This document shows positions 10,401 through 59,221 of a DNA stretch of 64,000 nucleotides, piece by piece. This DNA comes from Mobula hypostoma. Its lineage: Eukaryota. The first letter of the stretch is position 1; each line of letters opens with the position of its first letter. The translations under genes and the position numbers were made by a program. The stretch is from contig NC_086097.1 of NCBI RefSeq assembly GCF_963921235.1, positions 143,036,001 to 143,100,000 of the forward strand. The letters run 5' to 3'. Below the pieces are notes generated by a model. The model saw only the letters and a program-made list of their open reading frames with translations. It was not told the DNA's origin and searched no databases.

Positions 10401-11112
10401 ATGCAGCCCAACTTTGGGATAAGTTCCAGTTTGTGCCCATTCCTCAAGGCTGTGCTTCTCTGATGTAAGAACCATTACTCCAACTCCAGTCAAACAGGTC
10501 TTGCTGTTTACCAAGTGCCTGCAAATTCAGGGTTTTCTTTTGGGTAAAGTCAACAAGTTTATGAATAATGTTCATTCAAAAACAACAGTGTCTGGCAGAA
10601 TCTCCTCATTAAGTTTAATGAGGCCTTTTTACTGTAATAAGACCTCATTAAGTTAATAAAACAGCAAAGGAAGTTACACCCCTGGCAATCCTCTACTGAA
10701 ATTTCACTTTTCTGTGAGTTACTTCTCATGAGGATATCCACTTCAGTTCCAGCTCCTGCAAAGGGAAGATTGCTTATTTTTTGTGTACTAAGACAAGGAT
10801 CCATAATGGTTTGCAATTTGAAATAATAAACAGAGTATCACTTTTTAAAGAAAAGTTTATTTTCTGTACTTCTGAAAGTGAGGGGCATTTCCCTCTACAA
10901 TGTTCCAAGCATTCTCAGATCAGGTACAACATAGGTTATATACTAAATAAATTTTATGTTTCAATGTCAGGATTTGACAATGAGTAACTGGAAGAGAAGT
11001 GGATGTCTCATGGTGAAGATTCTCAGAAATATAAAATTGCAATAATTTTCAGTTACACTTCCCCACTGAGCACTTCAGCTTCTCTTTGTCTCTTTCTGTC
11101 TCTCTTCTTCAC

Positions 11113-11695
11113 CTCCCTGCAAATGTCTCAATCTCCTTCCCTGCAAATGTCTCACTCTCCCTCCCCGCAAACGTCTCACTCTCCCTCCCCGCAAACGTCT
11201 CACTCTCCCTCCCCGCAAACGTCTCACTCTCCCTCCCCGCAAACGTCTCACTCTTCCTCCCCGTAAACGTCTCACTCTCCCTCCCCGCAAACGTCTCACT
11301 CTCCCTCCCTGTAAACGTCTCAGTCTCCCTCCCTGCAAATGTCTCTCTCTCCCTCCCTGCAAATGTCTCTCTCTCCCTCCCTGCAAATGTCTCTCTCTCC
11401 TTCCCTGCAAACGTCTCTCTCTCCCTCCCTGCAAACGTCTCGCTCTCCCTCCCTGCAAACGTCTCACTCTCCTTCCCTGCAAACGTCTCACTCTCCTTCC
11501 CTGCAAACGTCTCACTCTCCCTCCCTGCAAACGTCTCGCTCTCCTTCCCTGCAAACGTCTCACTCTCCCTCCCTGCAAACGTCTCGCTCTCCTTCCCTGC
11601 AAACGTCTCACTCTCCCTCCCTGCAAACGTCTCACTCTCCTTCCCTGCAAACGTCTCACTCTCCCTCCCTGCAAATGTCTCACTCTCCTTCCCTG
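11113..11695. repeat. Minisatellite, about 24 copies of a 24-bp unit (CCCTGCAAACGTCTCACTCTCCCT)
   Basis: Direct inspection; 24 PANVSLSx units in ORF 11086..11778. Confidence 0.97.
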
Positions 11696-12990: not shown

Positions 12991-13641
12991 AGGTCATTAT
13001 CTCAAAATTAGTGCATATCCATTTATGATAGAAGTTCTATGATGCTGCAAATCACACACAGGAAAAAGAAGTTCAAAATTCTGAGTCTGAAAACGTGGCA
13101 AATGCAGGTGCAATTAAAGCTTTTTTTAAACTGAGTTTGACTGAAACAGAAGTGCTGGAATCGGAAACAAACAAACTGCTGGGGGATCTCCATGGATTGT
13201 GGGGGCAGAGGGATACAGACCTTTCAGGTCAGGTCCTGATGCAGGTTCTTGACCTGAAATGTGGACCATGAGTTTGATGGAGCTTTGTCGGGCAATTTTA
13301 TTAATGGCCATGAAGCAACTTTGGATAAATAGTGCTGAGGCCAAAATCTCACCACGCTTTCATGTTTCAAATTCCGAGATTGGCAACTCTTAGATCATTG
13401 TAACTATCCCTATTCAACGGGGAGCCATTATGTACTCACTGGGAATCTAATTTTGACCTTCACTTCAATTCCACTAAAGTGTTATGCAAGATTGTCTTCA
13501 GCCAACAATGGGATGGATGTAATACCCAGCCAGTCTGCCCTCCTCTATTATCAGTCCTTTTCCTTTTGTAAATGGAAACCATCACATGAGGTTCCAACTA
13601 CATGAAGCACACGATTTCCCATCACCGCTATTTGGAGGTCA

Positions 13642-17428: not shown

Positions 17429-19102
17429 GTCATAGTCATAGTCATACTTGATTAATCCCGGGGGAAATTGGTTTTCGTTACAGTTGCACCATAAATAATA
17501 AATAGTAATAGAAATAGTAATAGAAAAATAGTAATAAATAGTTAAATGTAAATTATGCCAGTAAATTATGAAATAAGTCCAGGACCAGCCTATCGGCTCA
17601 GGGTGTCTGACCCTCCAAGAGAGGAGTTGTAAAGTTTGATGGCCACAGGCAGGAATGACTTCCTATGACGCTCTGTGCTGCATCTCGGTGGAATGAGTCT
17701 CTGGTTGAATGTACTCCTGTGCCCACCCAGTACATTATGTAGTGGATGGGAGACATTGACCAAGATGGCATGCAACTAAGACAGCATCCTCTTTTCAGAC
17801 ACCACCGTGAGACAGTCCAGTTCCATCCTCACAACATCATTGGCCTTACGGATGAGTTTGTTGATTCTGTTGGCGTCTGCTAACCTCAGCCTGCTGCCCC
17901 AGCACACAACAGCAAACATGATAGCACTGGCCACCACAGACTCGTAGAACATCCTCAGCATCGTCCGGCAGATGTTAAAGGACCCCAGTCTCCTCAGGAA
18001 ATAGAGACGGCTCTGACCCTTCTTGTAGACAGCCTCAGTGTTCTTAGACCAGTCCAGTTTATTGTCAATTTGTATCCCCACGTATTTGTAATCCTCCACC
18101 ATGTCCACACTGACCCCCTGGATGGAAACAGGGGTCACCGATACCTTAGCCCTCCTCAGGTCTACCACCAGCTCCTTAGTCTTTTTCACATTAAGCTGCA
18201 GATAATTCTGCTCATACCATGTGACAAAGTTTCCTACCGTAGCCCTGTACTCAACCTCATCTCCCTTGCTGATGCATCCAACTATGGCAGAGTTATCCGA
18301 AAACTTCTGAAGATGACAAGACTCTGTGCAGTAGTTGAAGTCCGAGGTATAAATGGTGAAGAGAAAGGAAGACAAGACAGCCCCCTGTGGAGCCCCAGCG
18401 CTGTTGATCACTCTGTCGGACACACAGTGTTGCAAGCACACGTACTGTGGTCTGCCAGTCAGGGAATAAAGAATCCATGACACCAGGGGAGCATCCACCT
18501 GCATCGCCGTCAGCTTCTCCCCCAGCAGAGCAGGGCAGATGGTGTTGAACACACTGGAGAAGTCAAAAAAACATGACCCTCACAGTGCTCGCTGGCTTGT
18601 CCAGGTGGGCATAGACACGGTTCAGCAGGTAGACAATGACATCCTCAACTCCTAGTCGGGACTGGTAGGCAAACTGGAGGGGATCTACGTGTGGCCTGAC
18701 CATAGGCCGGAGCAGCTCCAGAACAAGTCTCTCCAGGGTCTTCATGATGTGGGAGGTCAATGCCACCGGTCTGTAGTCATTGAGGCCGCTGGGGTGCGGC
18801 GTCTTCGGCACAGGGACGAGGCAGGACGTCTTCCACAATACAGGAACCCTCCGGAGCCTCAGGCTCATGTTGAATACATGGCGAAGTACTCCGCATAGCT
18901 GAGGGGCACAGGCTTTGAGCACCCTGGTACTGACATCATCTGGTCCTGCAGCCTTGCTTGGGTTGAGACGTTTCAGCTGTCTTCTCACCTGTTTAGCTGT
19001 GAAGCCCACCGTGGTGGTTTTGTGTGGGGGAGGGGTATAGTCATGAGAGTAGGGTGGGGGACTGTGAGGAGGGGTAGGAGGGGAGAGTGGAATATGTGTT
19101 GG
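17429..19102 (-). mobile_element. Rex1/Babar-clade LINE, 5'-truncated, relatively young, 8-bp TSD TTGAGATA
   Basis: RT motifs KAAGPD, DYRPVALTSHIMK, GAPQG, LQKFSDN; (GACTAT)n tail at 17427-17446; TTGAGATA at 17421-17428 and 19103-19110. Confidence 0.9.
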
Positions 19103-19943
19103 TTGAGATAAAGATTGAATGTAAAAAGACTCAAGTGTAGGAGAGAAAGATCAAGTCACATTGATACAGCACTCTCACATCCCCAAATACTCGAAAACTA
19201 TTTTTGTTTAGCTGTTTTTGTTTTATAAGTAAACACAAGGATAAGCAGTGCATGGTAAGGTTACATGATAACTAGTTTTTGGCAGTGATGACCAGATGAA
19301 CACTGTTGGCCAGGACAGGAAGAGAACTGGCTTGTGTTTCCTGATATAGGGCAACCAGATTAACTGTATTCACCTTGGCAACAAACAGAGAGGCATCTCC
19401 AACAGTTCAGCCAGTAGAAATGCACTGAAGTATTAGATAATGTTATGTGTCCACATTTATCAGAATCAGATAATCATAACAATAAACAGGAGTGAAGTAA
19501 AACATGATGTCTATGCTGGCACCAACATCATAAGCTGTCCACAAAAACAATTCCACTCCCATATGCCTGGTGGAAACAAGACCCAAGGCAAATATTGAGA
19601 GAGATACTGAATGAGATGGACGGAATAGGAGTTGAGGATGAAGTAAGTGGCACATTATTGTAACAAGAAGTGGTAAGACATTATACTAAGGACACCTTGT
19701 GGAAGATCAGGAGGGGTGTATCCTACACATTGGTAGAAGGAGATTTTTTTCTTTGGGTGTGGTACAAATACTGGATTACATGTGAGTAGTGCATTGCCAG
19801 GTGAAAGAGAGGCATTCATCTTTACTGCTGTGCACGAAAACAGCTTGATAATGAGATACAGTCATGTTAGAGGAAAAAAAAAGTAACTAAGTATGGTGCC
19901 TTGTACATTAGGGTTCTACAATAACAGAGACGAGATCACTCAC

Positions 19944-20253: not shown

Positions 20254-20409
20254 CTGAGGAGGATAAAATAAACACAAAATAAAAGTTCAACATTTTCATC
20301 AAAGAAATATTAAGAGAAATAAATAGGATGTGAGAGAAGTAGCTGCCAATATATGAATCAAACTCGTCAGGTAAATGTACAGGTCAGAAGCTAAACACAA
20401 TATCCATTT

Positions 20410-20590
20410 TAAAACAAAATTGCAGGAGGAACTCAGTAGGCCAAGCAGCATCTGTGGGGGGGGGGGGGGCAAGGAATTGTCAATGTTTCGGGGGCGAGGC
20501 ACCACACAGATTCTGCTTCAACTACTGAGTTCTTTCATTAGACTTCTTTGTTGCTCCACATATCAGCATCTGCATTCTCTCACGTCTCCA
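20410..20590. mobile_element. Inverted pair of degenerate Penelope-tail fragments with a poly-G run
   Basis: ggaggaactcagtaggccaagcagcatct on one side and ctgagttc...cagcatctgca on the other. Confidence 0.65.
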
Positions 20591-21628
20591 TTTTAAAAAC
20601 AAGATACATATTGGGATAGCCAGTCGCATCTTAAGAACAATTTACAAGGACATCCAAATCCCTCTGAATATCAACATAGCTGCTCTCTTTTTTAAAGCAT
20701 TCAAATTTTCTTGTTGTCTCACCTCATGTATGCCTACATGATACTCCACCTCCCAACTCCTGATTGCTTCACATAAACCACTCTCTATCTTACTTTCGAA
20801 CCTTCCTCACAAACTCCTTTCTACCTCACTTTGTAATACTAACAAACTTGGATAATTACATGTCGACCTTTCATTTAGATCATTAATATAGATTGTAAAT
20901 AGTTGAGGCCTAAGCTGGCTTGTCGTGGCAGTCTACAAGTTACTTGCCAAACTGAAAATAACCAATTTATCTCCTCTCTTAGTGTGCTATACTGTATGCT
21001 CTATCAATGTGATTATGCCCAACCCTGTGAATGCCTAGCATATGCAATAACCATCTGTGAGGCACCTTATCAAATGCCTCTTATATTCTAGCTACGTTAC
21101 CTCCACTGGTTCCATTTTGCTCCTTTTTACTATTCAATAAATGTATCAAGATAACTCAGATTAATCATTTTTTAATGCTCTGTTATAATTTCCCAAATAC
21201 TGGATGAACTGGCCTATAGTTCCTTGTTATATTTACAACATTGAGAGGACATGGAACAGGATCACCAGAACAAGAGAAGATCCTTCAGCTTCTCAAGGAG
21301 ATGTCTCCTCGTGTTCTATCAATAATCTCCTATCGAAGCAAAACCAAAGACAGATCTTGCAATGCGAAAACTGGCTTTTGAATTCCATTTCACATTTCAC
21401 AATACACAATACAACTTTTCTCATTTAAATGTAAAAGAACTTAAATTAAATTATTCAGCATGTTACTCAGCATTGCATTTGCTTAGTTAAGGTTATGCTG
21501 AAGTATAACATGAACTCCAAGTATAAAGAAAGTCATAGTAAGACTCCTACTATTTTTTGCCAAAACTTTTAATCATATTAGTGAAAAAAGGGAAACATTC
21601 AGAAGTTTAAGATCGAGATCACTCTTAC

Positions 21629-22868: not shown

Positions 22869-22969
22869 TTAAATGGCCTCCCTAGTATTCTGTATTCTCC
22901 ACCTTCATTTTCAGTTTTAGGATCCACTTCCTTATCTCAGGAATGACTTGCAGTTAGAAAGCTTGGGTT

Positions 22970-23072
22970 CAAACAACACACACAAACTGCTGGAGGAACT
23001 CAGCAGGTCAGGCAGCATCTATGGAAAAGAGTACAGGCGATGTTTTGGGCCGAGAGCCTTCAGCAGGATAGG
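22970..23072 (-). mobile_element. Short Penelope-tail insertion with degenerate hammerhead motif; 11-bp TSD
   Basis: AAGCTTGGGTT at 22959-22969 and AAGCTTGTGTT at 23073-23083; homologous to 58123-58256. Confidence 0.85.
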
Positions 23073-23126
23073 AAGCTTGTGTTTGTTATTTTCCAATACT
23101 GAAGCTAGGAAACAATTTTCTGAATG

Positions 23127-23248
23127 AAGGTCTTGGCCCAAAACGTTGACTGTACTCTTTTCCATTGACGCTGCCTAACCTGCTGAGTTCCTCCAGCATT
23201 CTGTATGTGTTGCTTGGATTTCCAGCATCTGCAGATTTTCTCATTTGT
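23127..23248 (+). mobile_element. Short Penelope-tail insertion; 13-bp TSD
   Basis: AATTTTCTGAATG at 23114-23126 and 23249-23261; homologous to 58135-58256. Confidence 0.88.
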
Positions 23249-40217: not shown

Positions 40218-41267
40218 CTGAAACCAAACAGGAGTGCAGAGTTAGGGTTTTGGGTAAACAGCTGAACTACGCAGGCAGATCAATGATCCTGCTCACAGAC
40301 CGGCTGATGAAGGAAGGCTGTGGTTAAGATCCCACCTCCTCACCAACAGTCAAAGCCACCACATTCTTTTCCATCATCAACAGCATGGCAGTTAATCCTT
40401 TGTAGCACTGACTTTGTATCAAATCCTAGAGACAGGGCAACGACGTGGCACTCCCAGACCATTGGGGGATTTGATAGGTCACTGTTTTAGTGAGGGAAGA
40501 ACAAATATGTTTCAATGAGCCCTTCAATCTCCTGAATTTTCTTTCCCTTTTGCAAACAATTAGTCAGTAAGCATCTCTGAAAAGCAGAGGAGGCGAAGGA
40601 GAAGCAGTACTGCTGGAGTTGTGGGCTTTCACCCCGCCATTTACCCAGCCTTGGTACACGTCAGCCGATATCCTTACCAAACAAAAAATTAATCTCACTC
40701 CAAAGACCTCAGCCTTTCCAGCAAGAGGAACAGGATTTCAAGATTTCCACGCCTCGGGATAAAAGTGCTCGCTAAGTTCACGTTCATGTTTGCGAAGAAA
40801 AAGCATTTCAGGATGTATATTGTATACATTTCTCTGACTTTAAATTGTACCTTTGAACCTTTGAAATAGGCTCTCTATCTTAATAGTAACTCACTTATCA
40901 GCCCAGGAATGAGAGTCGATTGGAACTGGCATTAAAGAAGGTTTTTGTACCATTGTACATAAATAGTCATTCCAGTTGGTGTTGCTCGGTCAGAGGTCAG
41001 GCACAGTCTCCATCCCCTGCCCACAACGCGGTGGGGAGAAGCTGGGGCAAACCATGCAACCAGTCCACACTGCAAACTGGAATTCAAGATACAACTGGGC
41101 TGACAGTACTCTCCACGTACAGAAAGATCCTCTGATCTATCTCACCACTTTGCTGGATGTAATGCAACTGAGCATTCTTGAGCTGGTGATCAGAGTGGAG
41201 TCTCTGGACTTGGGAGAGCTATGCAAACATGCAAACGGACAGCAGCATCCATCACAGAGCTGATGAG

Positions 41268-41428
41268 AGAGTCTGCAGAATTTGCAGTAACACACACACA
41301 CACACACAAAATGCTGGAAGAACTCAGCAAGCAGGTCGGGTAGCATCTATGGAGGGGAATAAATAGTTGCATTTCGGGCCGAGACCTTTCATCAGGGCCC
41401 TTATCAGATCTCGATCTGAAATGTTGAA
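41268..41428 (-). mobile_element. Penelope-tail insertion with (CA)9, a hammerhead-like core and a short inverted remnant
   Basis: Minus strand CTGATGAAAGGTCTCGGCCCGAAA; homologous to 57175-57303. Confidence 0.85.
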
Positions 41429-46750: not shown

Positions 46751-48168
46751 TTAGTAGTCTATCCTTATATCCTTTCTGCAATTTTATTAACAACTTCCTC
46801 GATTTTGAAGTTTTCCTTTCGTCATAGCCATAAACTGACCTCATCAATATATGTACAAATAGTGTTTCTTGTTTGCAAGATCAGATTATTCACCATGTCA
46901 ATACAGCACCATTCCTTTTACTTTCAACTTATCTAAACTCCTTCCCAAATTAACAACATTTCTGACACAGTCCTGTATTTATTGATGAATTTACAGTGGC
47001 CCTGGATCTAGCCTTGTAGTTCTTTTGTTGTTGAAGTGCATGTAGAATACTATTCCAAGCTGAAAATACGGCTTTAGTTTATCTGTCTCGTCTATTTCCT
47101 ACAACAGTTACCATGCACTCATCTAAGCTGACAATGCTAATTCAGGTCCAAAAGAGAAACAATTCACACGACAGCTGGGTACAAGTTGACCTCACGCTGA
47201 TCTTACTTGCAGATCAAGTAGACATAACATGGCAAATATTCAGATTGAGTACAACAATGGTTTCATTAAAGAAGTAAATGAAAATCACAAAATGCAATAT
47301 ATAGTAGAAAAATTATCTTGATAAAGGGGATTGTTACAATGGAGAATGGTCTGCTGCAAATGGGCGCTTCAACAGTCCACTTTTTGTTCAAAAGAAGTAA
47401 ACCGTTGCTCCATAAATATTAATGGTCAGAAGGAACAATGAGAATTATTATGTCTGCTCACACATAGAAGATTAGGGCAAATTAATTGGAAAGTTGGATC
47501 AGAGAAGGAGAGATAAAATATGAGCAGGGAATGAGCAGAAGTAATGATTTATGCGGAGACAAATAATGGCACAAAATCAATTGTTAATTTTCCTCTAACT
47601 GTCCTTGTTAATGTGCTGCGGATCACTGGTCGGAAAGCTGAGTAACTGATGCACATAATTGTAGAATCAAAATATCTACAAGATGAAACAAAACAAAGCT
47701 ATTTATGTGCGCTCTGATGCGAGATCTTTTCTTATTGGATCTATCATTTGAGGTATAATTTTAATGGGGGATAGTAACTGCAGACTTGTCTTTGTCCATT
47801 CTGATTCCTGGCTCATGGATTATACCTGATAAGCTCCAAATTAGGCTCCTGTTATGAAGAAAGGTATGAGAAAGGTAAAAGAAAGATGGTGTTAACTTCA
47901 GTTCTTTGGGATTTATTTGGAAAACTTCTCCTTTCATGCAGAACTGCCTGGGAAAATTAATCAACATCTTCCTGTGTCATATACTGCCTGAGAAAACTGA
48001 GGAAAGCACACTACTGTGTCTACTCAGATCTCAACACTACATATTCCAGCAGCCATTCACAGGGAGGAAATTCTGCACCTTTATCTTCACTCTACTGCCC
48101 TGAGCAGAAAAAAATAGAAATGATTGTGGTGATACGTGTTCAAGTCTGCCCAGACCCAATTGATCATT

Positions 48169-48206
48169 GACAAGAGAAGATCTGCAGATGCTGGAAATCC
48201 AAGCAT
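48169..48206 (-). mobile_element. 38-bp Penelope terminal micro-insertion; 9-bp TSD
   Basis: TTGATCATT at 48160-48168 and 48207-48215 around acaagagaagatctgcagatgctggaaatccaagca. Confidence 0.85.
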
Positions 48207-48293
48207 TTGATCATTTTTTAGATTCTAAAATAAAATTAATTACAAGTTTTCAAAATGAAGCAAAATTAAGCCAAAGAAAGAGAGAGGGCTCAC

Positions 48294-48375
48294 CTCAGAT
48301 GTGCAGCCAGCCAACAGGTTAATAACCTCCAGGATGAAGGTTGGAGTGATTTTTGCTTCAATATTTTCAAAATTT
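48294..48375 (-). CDS. NBEAL2: NBEAL2 exon B (82 nt): NFENIEAKITPTFILEVINLLAGCTSE
   Basis: aaacag|A ... GAG|gtgag; resembles the NLENIE motif; not in the ORF track. Confidence 0.9.
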
Positions 48376-48789
48376 CTGTTTAAAGGAAGAAACATATCTG
48401 GTTATTAGATGTCCTGGGCCAAGGTTCAGTCACACAGAAGTAGATTACAGAACTGAATCCAATCAAGAGTTTCCGATAATTTACAAGCAGAATGATGGAC
48501 AACCATGGAGCTACAGTAACCTGCAACACTAGAGCAAGGTATATGTTGTGTAGCTGAATGCAAGTACTCTTGGATGCAAACCAGTAATTTGTTCCTGTTA
48601 AAATTCTTTCATTGTTCACAAACATAAAATCATCCTTGATCCACTGCAACTGGGCATCTTAATATCAAAGGTAATTTTATTTTGAAAAACTTTCTTGATG
48701 CACGTTAGAATGCTAATCCTGCTCAGCTTTATTAATTCAGTTGAAATTGAGCATACAGATTGCGCAGTCAACTAAATACAACTGTTAAT

Positions 48790-52791: not shown

Positions 52792-55529
52792 TTGTTTTTA
52801 TTAATTTTTTTATGAGTTTCTACAATACAACAAAAAAACCATGAGCAAAAAAAGATTTATACAGTGCAAGACAAACATGTCTAATATATAATTCATAACA
52901 GTAAAGAAAAAGCACCCAAAATAAAATCATATAAAGTTAGTATCGTCCCCACCCTCCCACTGCACAACTCCAAGCCAACCATTTCAATGTAAAGAAAAAT
53001 TAAACAGAGTTTTTGTCACCACAGAGCTGTAAATATATAAAAACGTATATTGCCTACAACCTAAACTGTAATATATTTCACATGAAAAAAACTGTAAAAC
53101 TTAACCAGAAAAAAAAAGCTGAAAGTAAGGGAATAAAACACAGGAAAAAAGGATAAACCTTTAATCTAAAGAGGAATTATGAAAATATTCAAGAAAAGGT
53201 CCCCACACCTTATGGAACTTTATGTCCGAATTAAGAAGTGAATAATGAATCTTTTCAAAGTCTAAATAGGACATAATGTCTCTAAGCCATTGAGTATTGA
53301 GTGGGTGGGGCAACATCTCTCCACCTAAGAAGAACTAAACGTCTAGCCAAAAGAGAGGCAAAAGATAATGTTCGACATTTAGTCGGACTCAAATACATGT
53401 CAACTTCACCCAAGGTGCCAAAAAGAACAATCAAAGGGTTAGGTTCAAAGTGGCAATTAAGAATATGGGATAAAGTTAAAAAGACTTCTCTCCAAAATTT
53501 CTCCAAACTAGGACAAGCCCAGTACATATGGATAAGAGAAGCCTCGCCCCCTTTACACTTGTCACAAAAAGGACTGATATCAGGATAAAACTGCAGTAAT
53601 TTAGTCATAGACATACGAGCCCTATGTACAACCATGAACTGCAAAAGACAGTGGTGAGCGCATAAAGAGGTTGAATTAACTGAATTAAGAATTGAATCCC
53701 AAACCTCGTTGGACAGAGAAATATTTAAATCATGCTCCCAGGCAGTTCTAATTTTATCAAAGGGGGCATGCCTCAAGGTCGCTAACTTATCACGAATAGT
53801 AGGTATTAAACCTTTACCCAATGGATTTATACAAAGAAACAAGTCCACAATGTTTTTTTCAGGCATCTCAGGAAAGTTTGGTATTAAAGGGTTAACAAAA
53901 TGTCTAATTTGAGGATATCTAAAAAAAAAATGAGTATTAGGTAGGTTAAACTTTGCAGACAGTTGTTGAAAAGTTGCAAAATGATCATCAATGAAAAGGT
54001 CTTCAAAGTGCCTAATGCTCTTTCTGTACCAGACATGAGCTGTTAAGTCTTGCATAGAAGGTCGGAAAAGATGGTTATGTAAAATAGGACTAGAGAGAGA
54101 GAGAGAAACCATGAAGACCATAATATTTTCTGAACTGAGCCCATATTCTCAGAGTATGTCTAAAGAGAGGATTAACAATTAGTTTAGGCAAATGACAAGG
54201 AAGTGCAGATCCAAGAAATGCAGAAATGGAGAAACCCTTATTAGAGTTGAACTCCATTGCCACCCATTTCGGGTAGTCAGACTGATTATAAAAGAAAGAC
54301 CAAAAATACGACGACGTATATTGGCTGCCCAGTAATACAAGTGAAAATTAGGCAAGGCCATGCCACCTTCCCTTTTAGGTTTTTGAAGGTGAACTTTATT
54401 AAGTCTGGAACATTTTCCCTTCCACAGATAGGACGAAATAATAGAATCTAACCAATCAAAAAAAGCTTTAGAAATAAAAATTGGTAAAGATTGGAATAAG
54501 TATAAAAATTTAGGAAGGATATACATTTTAACAACATGAATTCGACCTACCAGAGACATGGACAGGGGTGACCAGTGTGCCAAACTCTGCTTTGTATGAT
54601 TTAAAAGATTAGTGAAATTTTCTCGAAAAAGATGTTTGAAGTTCCTTGTTACTGTAATAGCGAGGTAAGTAAATTGATTATTTACTACTTTAAAAGGGAG
54701 GATATGAAATTCTAATATTTGTGCTTCTCTGTTAATCGGGAAAAGTTCACTCTTATGTAAATTAAGTTTGTATCTGGAAAGTTGGCTAAATTTATTTAGA
54801 AGTGAAAACATTGGGGGTAAGCAGGTAGTCGGATTTGATATAAAAAGTAAAAGATCATCAGCATAAAGAGAAACTTTATGCTCCACACCCCCCCTCTGAA
54901 TCCCTGTCAATCCAGCACAGCTACGAAATGCAATCGCCAGTGGCTCTATGGCCAGATCAAAAAGTAAGGGACTTAAAGCGCACCCTTGTCGGGTGCCACA
55001 TTTAAGGTTAAAGGGTTGGGATTGCTGAGAGTTGGTGAAAACAGAAGCAATGGGGTATGAATATAGCAATTTAATCCATGTAATAAAATTTTTTCCAAAA
55101 TCAAATTTTTCAAAATCAAAGATAGTTCCACTCCACACGATCAAATGTTTTCTCCGCGTCAAGAGAGATGACACATTCAGGAGTCCCAGTTGAAGGTGAA
55201 TACAAGATATTAAATAGACACTGTATATTAAAAAAAGGGAGGCGATTTTTAATAAAACCAGTTCGATCTTCAGAGATAATTGAGGATACAATGTTCTCCA
55301 ATCTACGAGCCAAAACTTTAGCCACAATTTTAACATCAGCATTTAACAAAGAAATCGGCCTATACGAAGAATACTCTATTGGGTCTTTACCTTTTTTCTC
55401 TAAAAGAATGATACGTGCCTCATTAAATGATGCTGGTAATTTACCATGTTTAAATGAATTGGATAAAACTAAGATTAACTGAGGCAAGAGCAGTGAGGAA
55501 AATGATTTATAAAATTCTGCAGAGATCCC
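52792..55529 (-). mobile_element. 5'-truncated L1-clade LINE (ORF2 RT plus zinc knuckle), 15-bp TSD
   Basis: YRPISLLNAD, GTRQGCALSP, SLYADDLL, CDKC...HMYWAC; AGTATGAGTATCTCT at 52777-52791 and AGTATGAGCATCTCT at 55530-55544. Confidence 0.93.
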
Positions 55530-55959
55530 AGTATGAGCATCTCTGAGGAGAACCATCACATTTACCAGTGGATTTGGGTGATTCCGAGATTCCATCGTAC
55601 AGTCTTATTTTCCCTCAGAGGTTTAGTGACACTAATGCTTTCAGTCAAAATGGACTTTTGTTACTGTGAAACATTCCCTTCTTCAGTTGCTGCCTCTCTA
55701 CTCTCTCCTCCAAGTGAAGTGGCAATGAGGTGGATCGTGCACGAAATTGAAGAAGCATCAAAGCCCTGCTGGTACAAAGCTAATTGCAGGGTGAGAAGAG
55801 AAATGGTACTGAACCATCAGGTAGCTAAAATAACCTTGGAACAGTTATTTCCTCAAGGGCTCTCTTCCCGCAGGGATCTCGGCAGACTCCTTGATAAGCT
55901 GGATGATTTTGTAGAATTGGTAGATCATAGAGTTGCTCAGCACAGCAACAGGTCACAAG

Positions 55960-56810: not shown

Positions 56811-57152
56811 GGAAATGTTTGACGACATGACATTACAAAATCTCTCAATTAAAATAAAGTGAACGAGGGCATTTTATATGACAGTAACTCCTCTGGTGTT
56901 CCGTGCACAGCAGAGATTCATTAGAACACTTCAAATGGAGGCTGCTCAGGAGATTTAGTTTCCATACTGACGTGACCATGGCACGTTCACATCTGCATCA
57001 GCCAATCATAAGACAATGGGCTATGTCAATAGGCCTGCATCAGACCAGTCATCAGACACCAGCCAAGTTATTTTGTCACTTAGCGCATCAAGTGTGGTTT
57101 TAGGCATATTTGTTCTGTCTATGAATAGTTAGGAGTCAGTCCTCACAACACC

Positions 57153-57466
57153 TAACAAGAGAACATCTCTTGTTAGAGAAAATCTGCGGATACTGGAAAT
57201 CCAAGCAACACACACAAAATGCTGGAGGAACTCAGCAGGCCAGGCAGCAACTATGGAAAAAAGTGCAGTCAATGTTTCGGGCCGAGACCCTTCATCAGGA
57301 CTGGAGAAAAAAATACCAGGGGTAAAGTTAAGCCCTCAGCTTTTAACTCTACTCATTTTCTTTTTCTCCAGTCCTGCTGAAGGGTCTCAGCCTGAAACGT
57401 CAGCTGTTTACTCTTTTCCATAGATGCTGCCTGGTCTGCTGAGTTCCTCCAGCATTTTGTGTGCGT
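57153..57466. mobile_element. Fold-back Penelope-derived insertion with two inverted hammerhead-like motifs; 13-bp TSD
   Basis: TCCTCACAACACC at 57140-57152 and 57467-57479; arms 57207-57315 and 57357-57467 are reverse complementary. Confidence 0.9.
57266..57303 (-). ncRNA. Minimal type I hammerhead ribozyme-like motif (Penelope type)
   Basis: CAGUC-CUGAUGA-A-GGGU(CUCG)GCCC-GAAAC-AUU-GACUG: perfect stem I, intact core boxes, 4-bp stem II; stem III decayed from ACGU to ACAU. Confidence 0.7.
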
Positions 57467-57502
57467 TCCTCACAACACCAAGTTTGGTTCCTGTGACTGA
57501 AA

Positions 57503-58256
57503 TGCCTCACCTGCCCATTTACTTCATCCCTTACTTCTATTCAGGGCCACCAAAAGTCCTTCCAGGTGAGGCAATACTTCTTCCGTGAATCTGTTGGGAT
57601 CGTCTATTGTATCTGGTGCTCCCAATGCAGCCTTCTCTACATTGGTGAGACCCGACGTAAATCGGGGGACCGCTTTGTTGAGCACCTCCACTCCATCTGC
57701 TTAAAGCAGAATATTCTGGTGGCCAACCATTTTAATTCCTATCCCCCCCACCAATTCCTGTTCTGACATACCAGTCCATGGCCTCCTCTTTTGTCACGAT
57801 GAGGCCATTGCTTGGGTGGAGGAGCAACACCTCGTATTCCATCTGGGCAGCCTCCAACCCAATGGCATGAACATTGATTTCTCCTTCCAGTAATGATTTT
57901 CCACCTCTCCCTTCTCCCATTCCCCACTCTGGCCTCTTACCTCTTGTCCTCATTTACCTATCACCTCCCTCAGTGCCCCTCTTTCTTTCCTTTCACCCAT
58001 GGTCCTCTCTCCTTTCCTATCAGGTTCCCTTTTCTGCAGCCCTGGCTTCACCCTTCATTTCTAGCTAGTCCTCCATTCCCCTCCACCCACCTTTTTATTC
58101 TGGCATCTTCCCCCTTCCTTTCCAGTCCTGAAGAAGGGTCAGCCTGAAACATCAACTATATATTCATTTCAATAGATGCTGCCTGACCTGCTGAGTTCTT
58201 CCAGAATTGTGTGTGTGTATCGCTCTGGATTTCCAGCATCTGCAGAATCTCTTGTG
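57503..58256 (+). mobile_element. Penelope-like element 3' portion (GIY-YIG endonuclease remnant plus hammerhead-bearing tail)
   Basis: GIVYCIWCSQCSLLYIGETRR..DRFVEH...VANHFN; CAGTC-CTGAAGA-A-GGGTC..GAAAC at 58123-58150. Confidence 0.9.
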
Positions 58257-59221
58257 CTACTAATTTTGGTTACCTGTGTTTCCTTTCCTCAGAAGCTTTT
58301 AGAACCTGTATTACTTTATACCAGCAAAGGTGGAACATTCAGAAGAGATTTATCAGTTACAGTACAGCTGTCCCAAATACTGTATATAATTCAATGGAAC
58401 CATTGTCAGACTCAAAATAGCAAAATAAATTATCTTGAAGCTATTGAAATGGTATTGAATCATTCCCCGTTATGTCTGTTCTAAAGGGTGTACTTTTGAG
58501 TTCAGAGAGATTCTGCTGAGACTGTCTCCAGGAGAATGCCTGCCTGAATAAAGCCCTTTATGTCCACCAGGTGCAGTGTCTCCAATAACTCAGTTCCAAG
58601 TTATAACAGCATCACTGTGCTACCTTTGCACCACTTCAAGAAATTCATGTCATTTTTTGTCAAATGGTGATTGATAATTGGCTCATCAATGTGCACTAAA
58701 AATGGATTGAAATCAGATATTGATGTTGTCCCACAGCAGGAGGTTCCATCTGAAATATTGTGATGAATTCAGGCATTCTAGAGAATTACGTGCAGATAAA
58801 ATTCCATCTTTTTTTTTTACTGAGCGTTATGTTATTCAGTAAGTCGGGCAGAAGACATGAAGATTGATGGAGCTGTGGATAGTGTGGAGGATAGTTTTGG
58901 GCTGAAGGGTGATATCAGTGTCTTGCGGAAATAGGAAGAGTAAACGGACTTTAATCCTGTTTAATGTTTAACATTGGGAGCATTGATGAGGTTATGAATG
59001 ATAGGGTCAAAAGAGTATTGAGTAATGGAGGGATTTTGTGCACAAGTCCAGTTTCTCCAGCATTTCCTGTTTCAGATTCCAAAATCTACAGTGATGTTAG
59101 ATTTCCAAATAAAAGACATGGGATTTGGTAGGTGAATTTGCAATTGCAAGTTGCCCCTAGCATGCAGCTGAATAGTAGAATTTATTGGGTTGGGGTGGGG
59201 GGCGGTGGCGAGTTGATGGTA

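Follow-up and report, generated by a model that had tools for sequence, protein, structure and literature searches.

Within an intron of NBEAL2, a 64,000-nucleotide stretch of the Mobula hypostoma genome (contig NC_086097.1, positions 143,036,001 to 143,100,000; hereafter the window) carries a short fold-back unit with hammerhead-ribozyme motifs on both strands. A first-pass annotation, made from the letters alone, proposed that this unit is a mobile non-coding ribozyme cassette moved by Penelope machinery, and that one arm could sequester the ribozyme of the other. The locus therefore raises the question of whether its two-armed layout marks such a mobile family or is what a single integration of an ordinary element leaves behind, and whether either ribozyme could still cut.

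Boundaries of the insertion and its host intron

The unit lies between two exact copies of a 13-bp direct repeat (57140-57152 and 57467-57479), whose spacing of 327 bp leaves an insert of 314 bp. Shared strings of at least 12 nt were found in none of the 19,357 control zone pairs (40-nt zones with a separation of 313 bp, taken from other parts of the window), and we infer from the sequence that the repeat is a TSD. Inside it, two inverted arms align over 57204-57311 and 57361-57470; they agree in 93 of 105 columns and differ by a single 2-nt indel as well. Weaker homology between the arms extends inward up to a 5-nt loop at 57334-57338, around which the inverted junction forms a short palindromic stem. 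The arms thus exceed 110 bp, and almost the whole unit folds back on itself. We delimited the left arm as 57207-57333 (minus strand, the sense of the NBEAL2 pre-mRNA) and the right arm as 57339-57467 (plus strand, antisense to NBEAL2); the head-to-head turning point is the loop itself, closed by the short inverted match. The predicted fold of the 314-bp unit has an energy of -196.6 kcal/mol (z = -19.9), and none of 100 shuffled sequences was equally stable.

The left end carries a further hairpin (57152-57176) with 11-bp arms at 57152-57162 and 57166-57176. Set against five tail ends from elsewhere in the window, the hairpin adds 17 nt within the tail end. These extra nucleotides repeat the last ~10 nt in inverted orientation, with a 5-nt microhomology (57158-57162 and 57175-57179), an arrangement for which a short template switch is the likely cause. 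The remainder of what appears to be the optional tail of a Penelope-like element (PLE), as the accessible parts of PMC3846280 and PMC8557442, and PMC11167929, define such a tail, occupies 57177-57206 on the minus strand. If the 17-nt duplication is discounted, the left arm reaches ~37 bp farther than the right, and this extension is the tail, which the right arm lacks.

Exons of the host gene were mapped on the minus strand by tblastn (8 of 23 homologues found) at ~63920-63755 and ~48392-48290. No exon lies between them, which makes the unit intronic (intron of ~15 kb), and its minus arm has the same orientation as the pre-mRNA; the nearest mapped exon is over 6 kb away. The best named homologues are NBEAL2, at 71% compared with 51-54% for NBEAL1. 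The exon map and the homologues thus bear out the placement of the unit in an NBEAL2 intron with the minus arm in sense, and the 314-bp length, the 13-bp repeats and the left-end hairpin of the first-pass annotation were confirmed as well. Its description of the arms as inverted Penelope 3′ tails of about 110 bp stood with respect to origin and inversion and failed with respect to length.

Assignment of the arms to a Penelope-like element

Judged by their similarity to a neighboring remnant, the two arms each derive from a PLE 3′ end. The remnant (57497-58256, plus strand) is a separate, more diverged, 5′-truncated PLE with a broken GIY-YIG piece, a 3′ end that includes a decayed hammerhead, and a tail. 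The arms are 80-82% identical to its tail (80% for the left arm). Its GIY-YIG piece matches Pfam PF01541 with E=0.003, which is below the curated cut-off, and a protein search with this piece returned one match, without a name. No PLE reverse transcriptase, by which the clade (Penelope/Poseidon, Neptune or Nematis) would be assigned, lies next to the insert. Since the remnant joins a GIY-YIG piece to the same 3′ end, it names the family of the arms. A single composite event comprising the unit and the remnant was rejected, as the two have separate direct repeats and their tails are only 80-82% alike. The older remnant is itself bounded by a degenerate direct repeat (57477-57495 and 58259-58278; 17 of 20 columns; null 57/19,497), the first 3 nt of which overlap the end of the 57467-57479 repeat, placing two PLE insertions at almost the same site.

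To look at other copies, a profile made from six copies in the window was run on the whole 64 kb with a cut of E<=1. It gave 19 matches, six of which were the copies used for training, whereas the reversed window gave 0. Two further head-to-head pairs were found. The pair at 20414-20586 has a one-sided tail and an 11-bp direct repeat (20403-20413 and 20587-20597), for which the null was 10/19,752 per test with five right ends tried; its right arm is a weak match (E=0.12). The pair at 22968-23242 has a tail on one arm, and the search for a direct repeat around it yielded none, with 5-6 nt at best. The junctions of these pairs align neither with the junction at 57334-57338 nor with each other. 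With several pairs and unrelated junctions, the two-armed layout is thus something that integration produces repeatedly and does not define one family.

Several other features of the window were recorded. The arms of the pair within 20403-20597 look like different, more diverged subfamilies. The pair at 22968-23242 lies ~125 nt from an NBEAL2 exon edge (~22844), which would place a long predicted duplex near a 3′ splice site. A fourth head-to-head pair may lie at 13154-13268, where the candidate is weak. A tail-only PLE piece of ~36 bp (48160-48215), with 9-bp direct repeats (null 100/19,752), lies near the NBEAL2 exon at ~48290-48392. A solo PLE end at 41265-41420, oriented like the gene, shows a small palindrome where its 5′ side meets the flank. 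Apart from PLEs, a tandem array of short units at 11098-11695 gives rise to long stop-free frames, and LINE-like RT remnants occur elsewhere in the introns (e.g. 789-2690, 17776-19150 and 53282-55604).

Decay of both hammerhead motifs

Both motifs had been read as minimal type I hammerheads, and these readings match the sequence. The motif of the sense arm (57266-57303, minus strand) retains the core boxes, the extra A, stems I and II and the G10.1-C11.1 pair. Two CpG transitions, G16.2>A (57273) and C17>U (57271), have converted stem III to ACAU, with loss of the palindrome, and the triplet from GUC to AUU, at a predicted cut site of 57271/57270. The family majority, represented by the loose-end consensus in all four runs, has the ACGU palindrome and the GUC triplet. 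The core of this copy, which had been called intact, is therefore intact in its CUGAUGA and GAAA boxes and changed at positions 16.2 and 17. The motif of the plus arm (57369-57406) carries A6>C (57377), C11.1>U (57393), which leaves a G-U pair at 10.1-11.1, and a broken stem I (57402-57403); the stem-III palindrome is kept only here. Of the 12 substitutions between the arms, five are CpG transitions, two of them at catalytic positions. The arms are 88.6% alike, compared with identities of 87.4% and 86.7% to an arm of the insertion at 23 kb. The A6C core change occurs in two separate insertions (at 57377 and at the matching place in the left arm 22968-23073) and may be a subfamily variant.

Both motifs are likely dead and are predicted not to cut. 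An AUU triplet fits the NUH rule but cuts more slowly than GUC; a literature search for the rate at AUU triplets found nothing. As far as the available text of PMC6908138 goes, UUU is a poorer triplet than UUC. In other hammerheads, A6C strongly lowers Mg2+-dependent cleavage and favors Mn2+ over Mg2+, according to the portion of PMC7151607 consulted. The accessible section of PMC4209133 gives the palindromic 15.2-16.2 as a family feature and reports, for one minimal motif, no cleavage as a monomer and low cleavage as a dimer. A same-sense partner for a dimer is absent from the unit, where the partner is antisense, and the nearest motif-bearing copy in the same sense, at 41.3 kb, is damaged.

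The Rfam search that had been proposed as a check, once run, gave no support from the hammerhead models: there was no match at gathering level in the window, and none among the 11 weak matches (E<=10) in 57100-58300. Such models are expected to overlook minimal motifs that lack helix III. Weak matches to miRNA precursors were discarded as generic hairpins that scored far below gathering level. A literature search, mostly of open-access papers, found nothing on a minimal PLE hammerhead in sharks or rays, and cartilaginous fish do not appear in the consulted portion of PMC4209133.

Abundance and age of the insertion

In public contigs, the depth of the tail family exceeds that of the flanks by a factor of at least 10^5. 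The summed contig depth in one run (X1; 311,167 contigs) was 1.1-13.9 million over the arm bins, compared with 22-23 on unique flank contigs; such a sum is not a copy number and is read only as very high copy. The same pattern of high arm-bin depth was repeated in three other organisms. The bin across the junction (57312-57361) had a summed depth of 10,898 in X1, ~500 times that of the flank. This depth can be explained by the edges of the arms, yet it would also accommodate additional copies that share the junction. In X1, a different head-to-head joint (from 57312 to 57373, with 10 other letters between) had a summed depth of 148, which is above single copy.

The left junction, comprising flank, TSD, hairpin and the start of the tail, was found in three organisms (A, B and C) with 0, 4 and 8 differences, respectively, over ~292 nt. 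The left-junction contigs of organisms B and C have no gaps, including across the end hairpin, and the right junction was found in organisms A and B. Because the left junction is common to three species, the insertion is old and predates those splits. No empty-site joint occurred among the 15 joints listed out of 7,074. For a further organism (D), the flank contig ends at 57152, with no continuation into the insert among those listed; its run (X10) is patchy. An exact 22-mer scan for more copies gave no hit in metagenomes. The corresponding 20-mer scan gave six loci in metagenomes, none in viruses and six in prokaryote genomes, and these were taken as chance matches because the similarity ends after 20-28 nt in all 12. 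One metagenome contig (L003:701-862) has the chance-matched 20-mer twice, 141 bp apart, and is unrelated to the insert.

Proposed mechanism of integration

We consider it very probable that the unit is an ordinary dead-on-arrival PLE insertion, in which two 3′ ends lie head to head in one 13-bp direct repeat after a single aborted integration and have since decayed. The GIY-YIG endonuclease of the element would have nicked both strands 13 nt apart. Each nicked end would then have primed reverse transcription on the element RNA, one at the end of the tail and the other at an internal start ~37 nt upstream. Both cDNAs would have stopped after ~130-165 nt, a short inverted match would have served to join them in head-to-head orientation, and fill-in would have made the duplication, with the likely template switch adding the end hairpin. 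The hammerheads would be passengers of the end of the element. Work on a PLE protein in vitro (PMC11167929) has shown that it nicks and extends both strands, that two RT start sites bound the tail and that hammerhead cleavage is dispensable for insertion. Some observations run counter to this reading: the pair at 23 kb lacks a direct repeat, and the sense motif keeps its core boxes and stems I and II. Selection could likewise account for the persistence of the insertion in three species.

Within this ordinary insertion, priming at two ends is somewhat favored as the source of the head-to-head join over self-priming, that is, the folding back of one cDNA or RNA. Self-priming seems the weaker variant of the two, and adopting it would not change the verdict. 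The palindrome at the junction speaks for it, and the available text of PMC3846280 interprets such junctions in this way and prefers self-priming. Against it, each state of the 2-nt indel that separates the arms is found in other copies (the short state in both arms at 23 kb, the long state at 58.1 kb and 41.3 kb), and the inner ~30 nt of the arms are more diverged. The indel states common to other copies, together with the diverged inner ~30 nt, suggest that two templates were used.

Predicted masking by the antisense arm

The proposal that the antisense arm pairs over the sense motif was supported by folding: in the fold of the pre-mRNA sense, the sense motif can form its stems I and II only at a predicted cost of 39.5 kcal/mol. 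In the NBEAL2 pre-mRNA, the antisense arm would be transcribed first and would pair over the sense motif. Such masking is predicted to follow from any head-to-head PLE pair, on either strand, and needs no selection. It is nevertheless conceivable, if rather improbable, that pairs muzzle their own ribozyme and are thus tolerated in introns from which an active solo sense copy would be purged, or that the junction marks a small re-mobilized family. If masking does act in this way, intact sense intronic hammerheads should be enriched in two-armed units genome-wide. A mostly open-access literature search returned nothing on antisense masking of intronic PLE hammerheads.

Less likely readings: a mobile cassette or a co-opted ribozyme

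We regard as improbable that the unit is a non-autonomous, MITE-like PLE derivative with a fixed junction, whose full length is transcribed and inserted anew. As far as the accessible parts of the sources go, pLTR-bounded units can be mobilized in trans (PMC3846280) and non-autonomous relatives of PLEs exist (PMC8557442; bioRxiv 2026.07.22.740005). The depth of the junction bin would allow up to a few hundred copies, and the other joint has its depth of 148. Against these points, the spacer matches only this locus and the junctions of the other pairs are unrelated; a second copy sharing the junction was not found within the 64-kb window. Asymmetric ends together with a TSD are what a primary integration leaves, and the copy is old and decayed. 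The mobile ribozyme cassette of the first-pass annotation is thus not upheld, given the other pairs with other junctions, the damaged motifs and an insertion common to three species; the one-off inverted 5′ truncation that the annotation had set against it fits best.

Co-option of the hairpin or of the masked ribozyme to regulate the NBEAL2 pre-mRNA (by conditional cleavage, A-to-I editing or back-splicing) would agree with the sense orientation in an intron, the very stable predicted duplex, the retention in three species and the domesticated intronic hammerheads of amniotes described in the available text of PMC6155905, and is very unlikely in view of the changes at positions 16.2 and 17, the drift of the arms apart in a CpG-rich pattern, the similar pairs every ~20 kb here and the distance of over 6 kb to an exon.

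Comparison with known systems

The ordinary PLE insertion favored here closely resembles published cases. In the insertions described in the accessible part of PMC3846280, the pLTRs are inverted, the TSDs measure 8-10 bp, a tail of 31 bp is present on one side and the junctions contain palindromes, and that of PMC8557442 presents the same inverted layout as a general rule for PLEs. Like such insertions (e.g. Pen2a_Av of Adineta vaga), the present unit has a head-to-head 5′-truncated copy, a tail of 30-40 bp at one end, a junction palindrome and a short putative TSD. Unlike the Pen2a_Av-type insertions described there, its arms are cut to ~130-165 nt and contain no ORF, its putative TSD is 13 bp rather than 8-10 bp, and it has an extra hairpin at one end.

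The motifs agree with the minimal type I hammerheads of metazoan PLEs, as the consulted portion of PMC4209133 defines them, in the CUGANGA and GAAA boxes, the extra nucleotide lying between position 9 and position 10.1, the 5-bp stem I and the lack of a real stem III. Dual minimal hammerheads on opposite strands, 100-700 bp apart, are reported for Schistosoma mansoni in the same text (Cervera and De la Pena 2014, PMC4209133). Stem II of the S. mansoni hammerheads is 7-8 bp, whereas here it is 4 bp and both copies are mutated. PAc, a Poseidon PLE of Anolis carolinensis (PMC11167929), likewise has its tail between two RT start sites and a hammerhead in the pLTR, and both strands are nicked and extended. 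It differs in being an in vitro system, in which the hammerhead needs protein to cut. Non-LTR retrozymes, to judge from the available text of bioRxiv 2026.07.22.740005, are also short, non-coding and PLE-derived and carry a type I hammerhead; in contrast to the inverted pair seen here, their units are arranged in tandem, head to tail, and every unit has its own hammerhead.

Both the insertion pattern and opposite-strand pairs of hammerheads are thus already known and published for PLEs, and the unit, as one more dead copy of that pattern in a genome where such ends are extremely numerous, matters little as it stands. It would matter more only if a genome-wide masking bias or a fixed-junction family proved true. 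For work on PLE integration, it offers a tidy, datable example, common to three species, that bears on the choice between two templates and self-priming.
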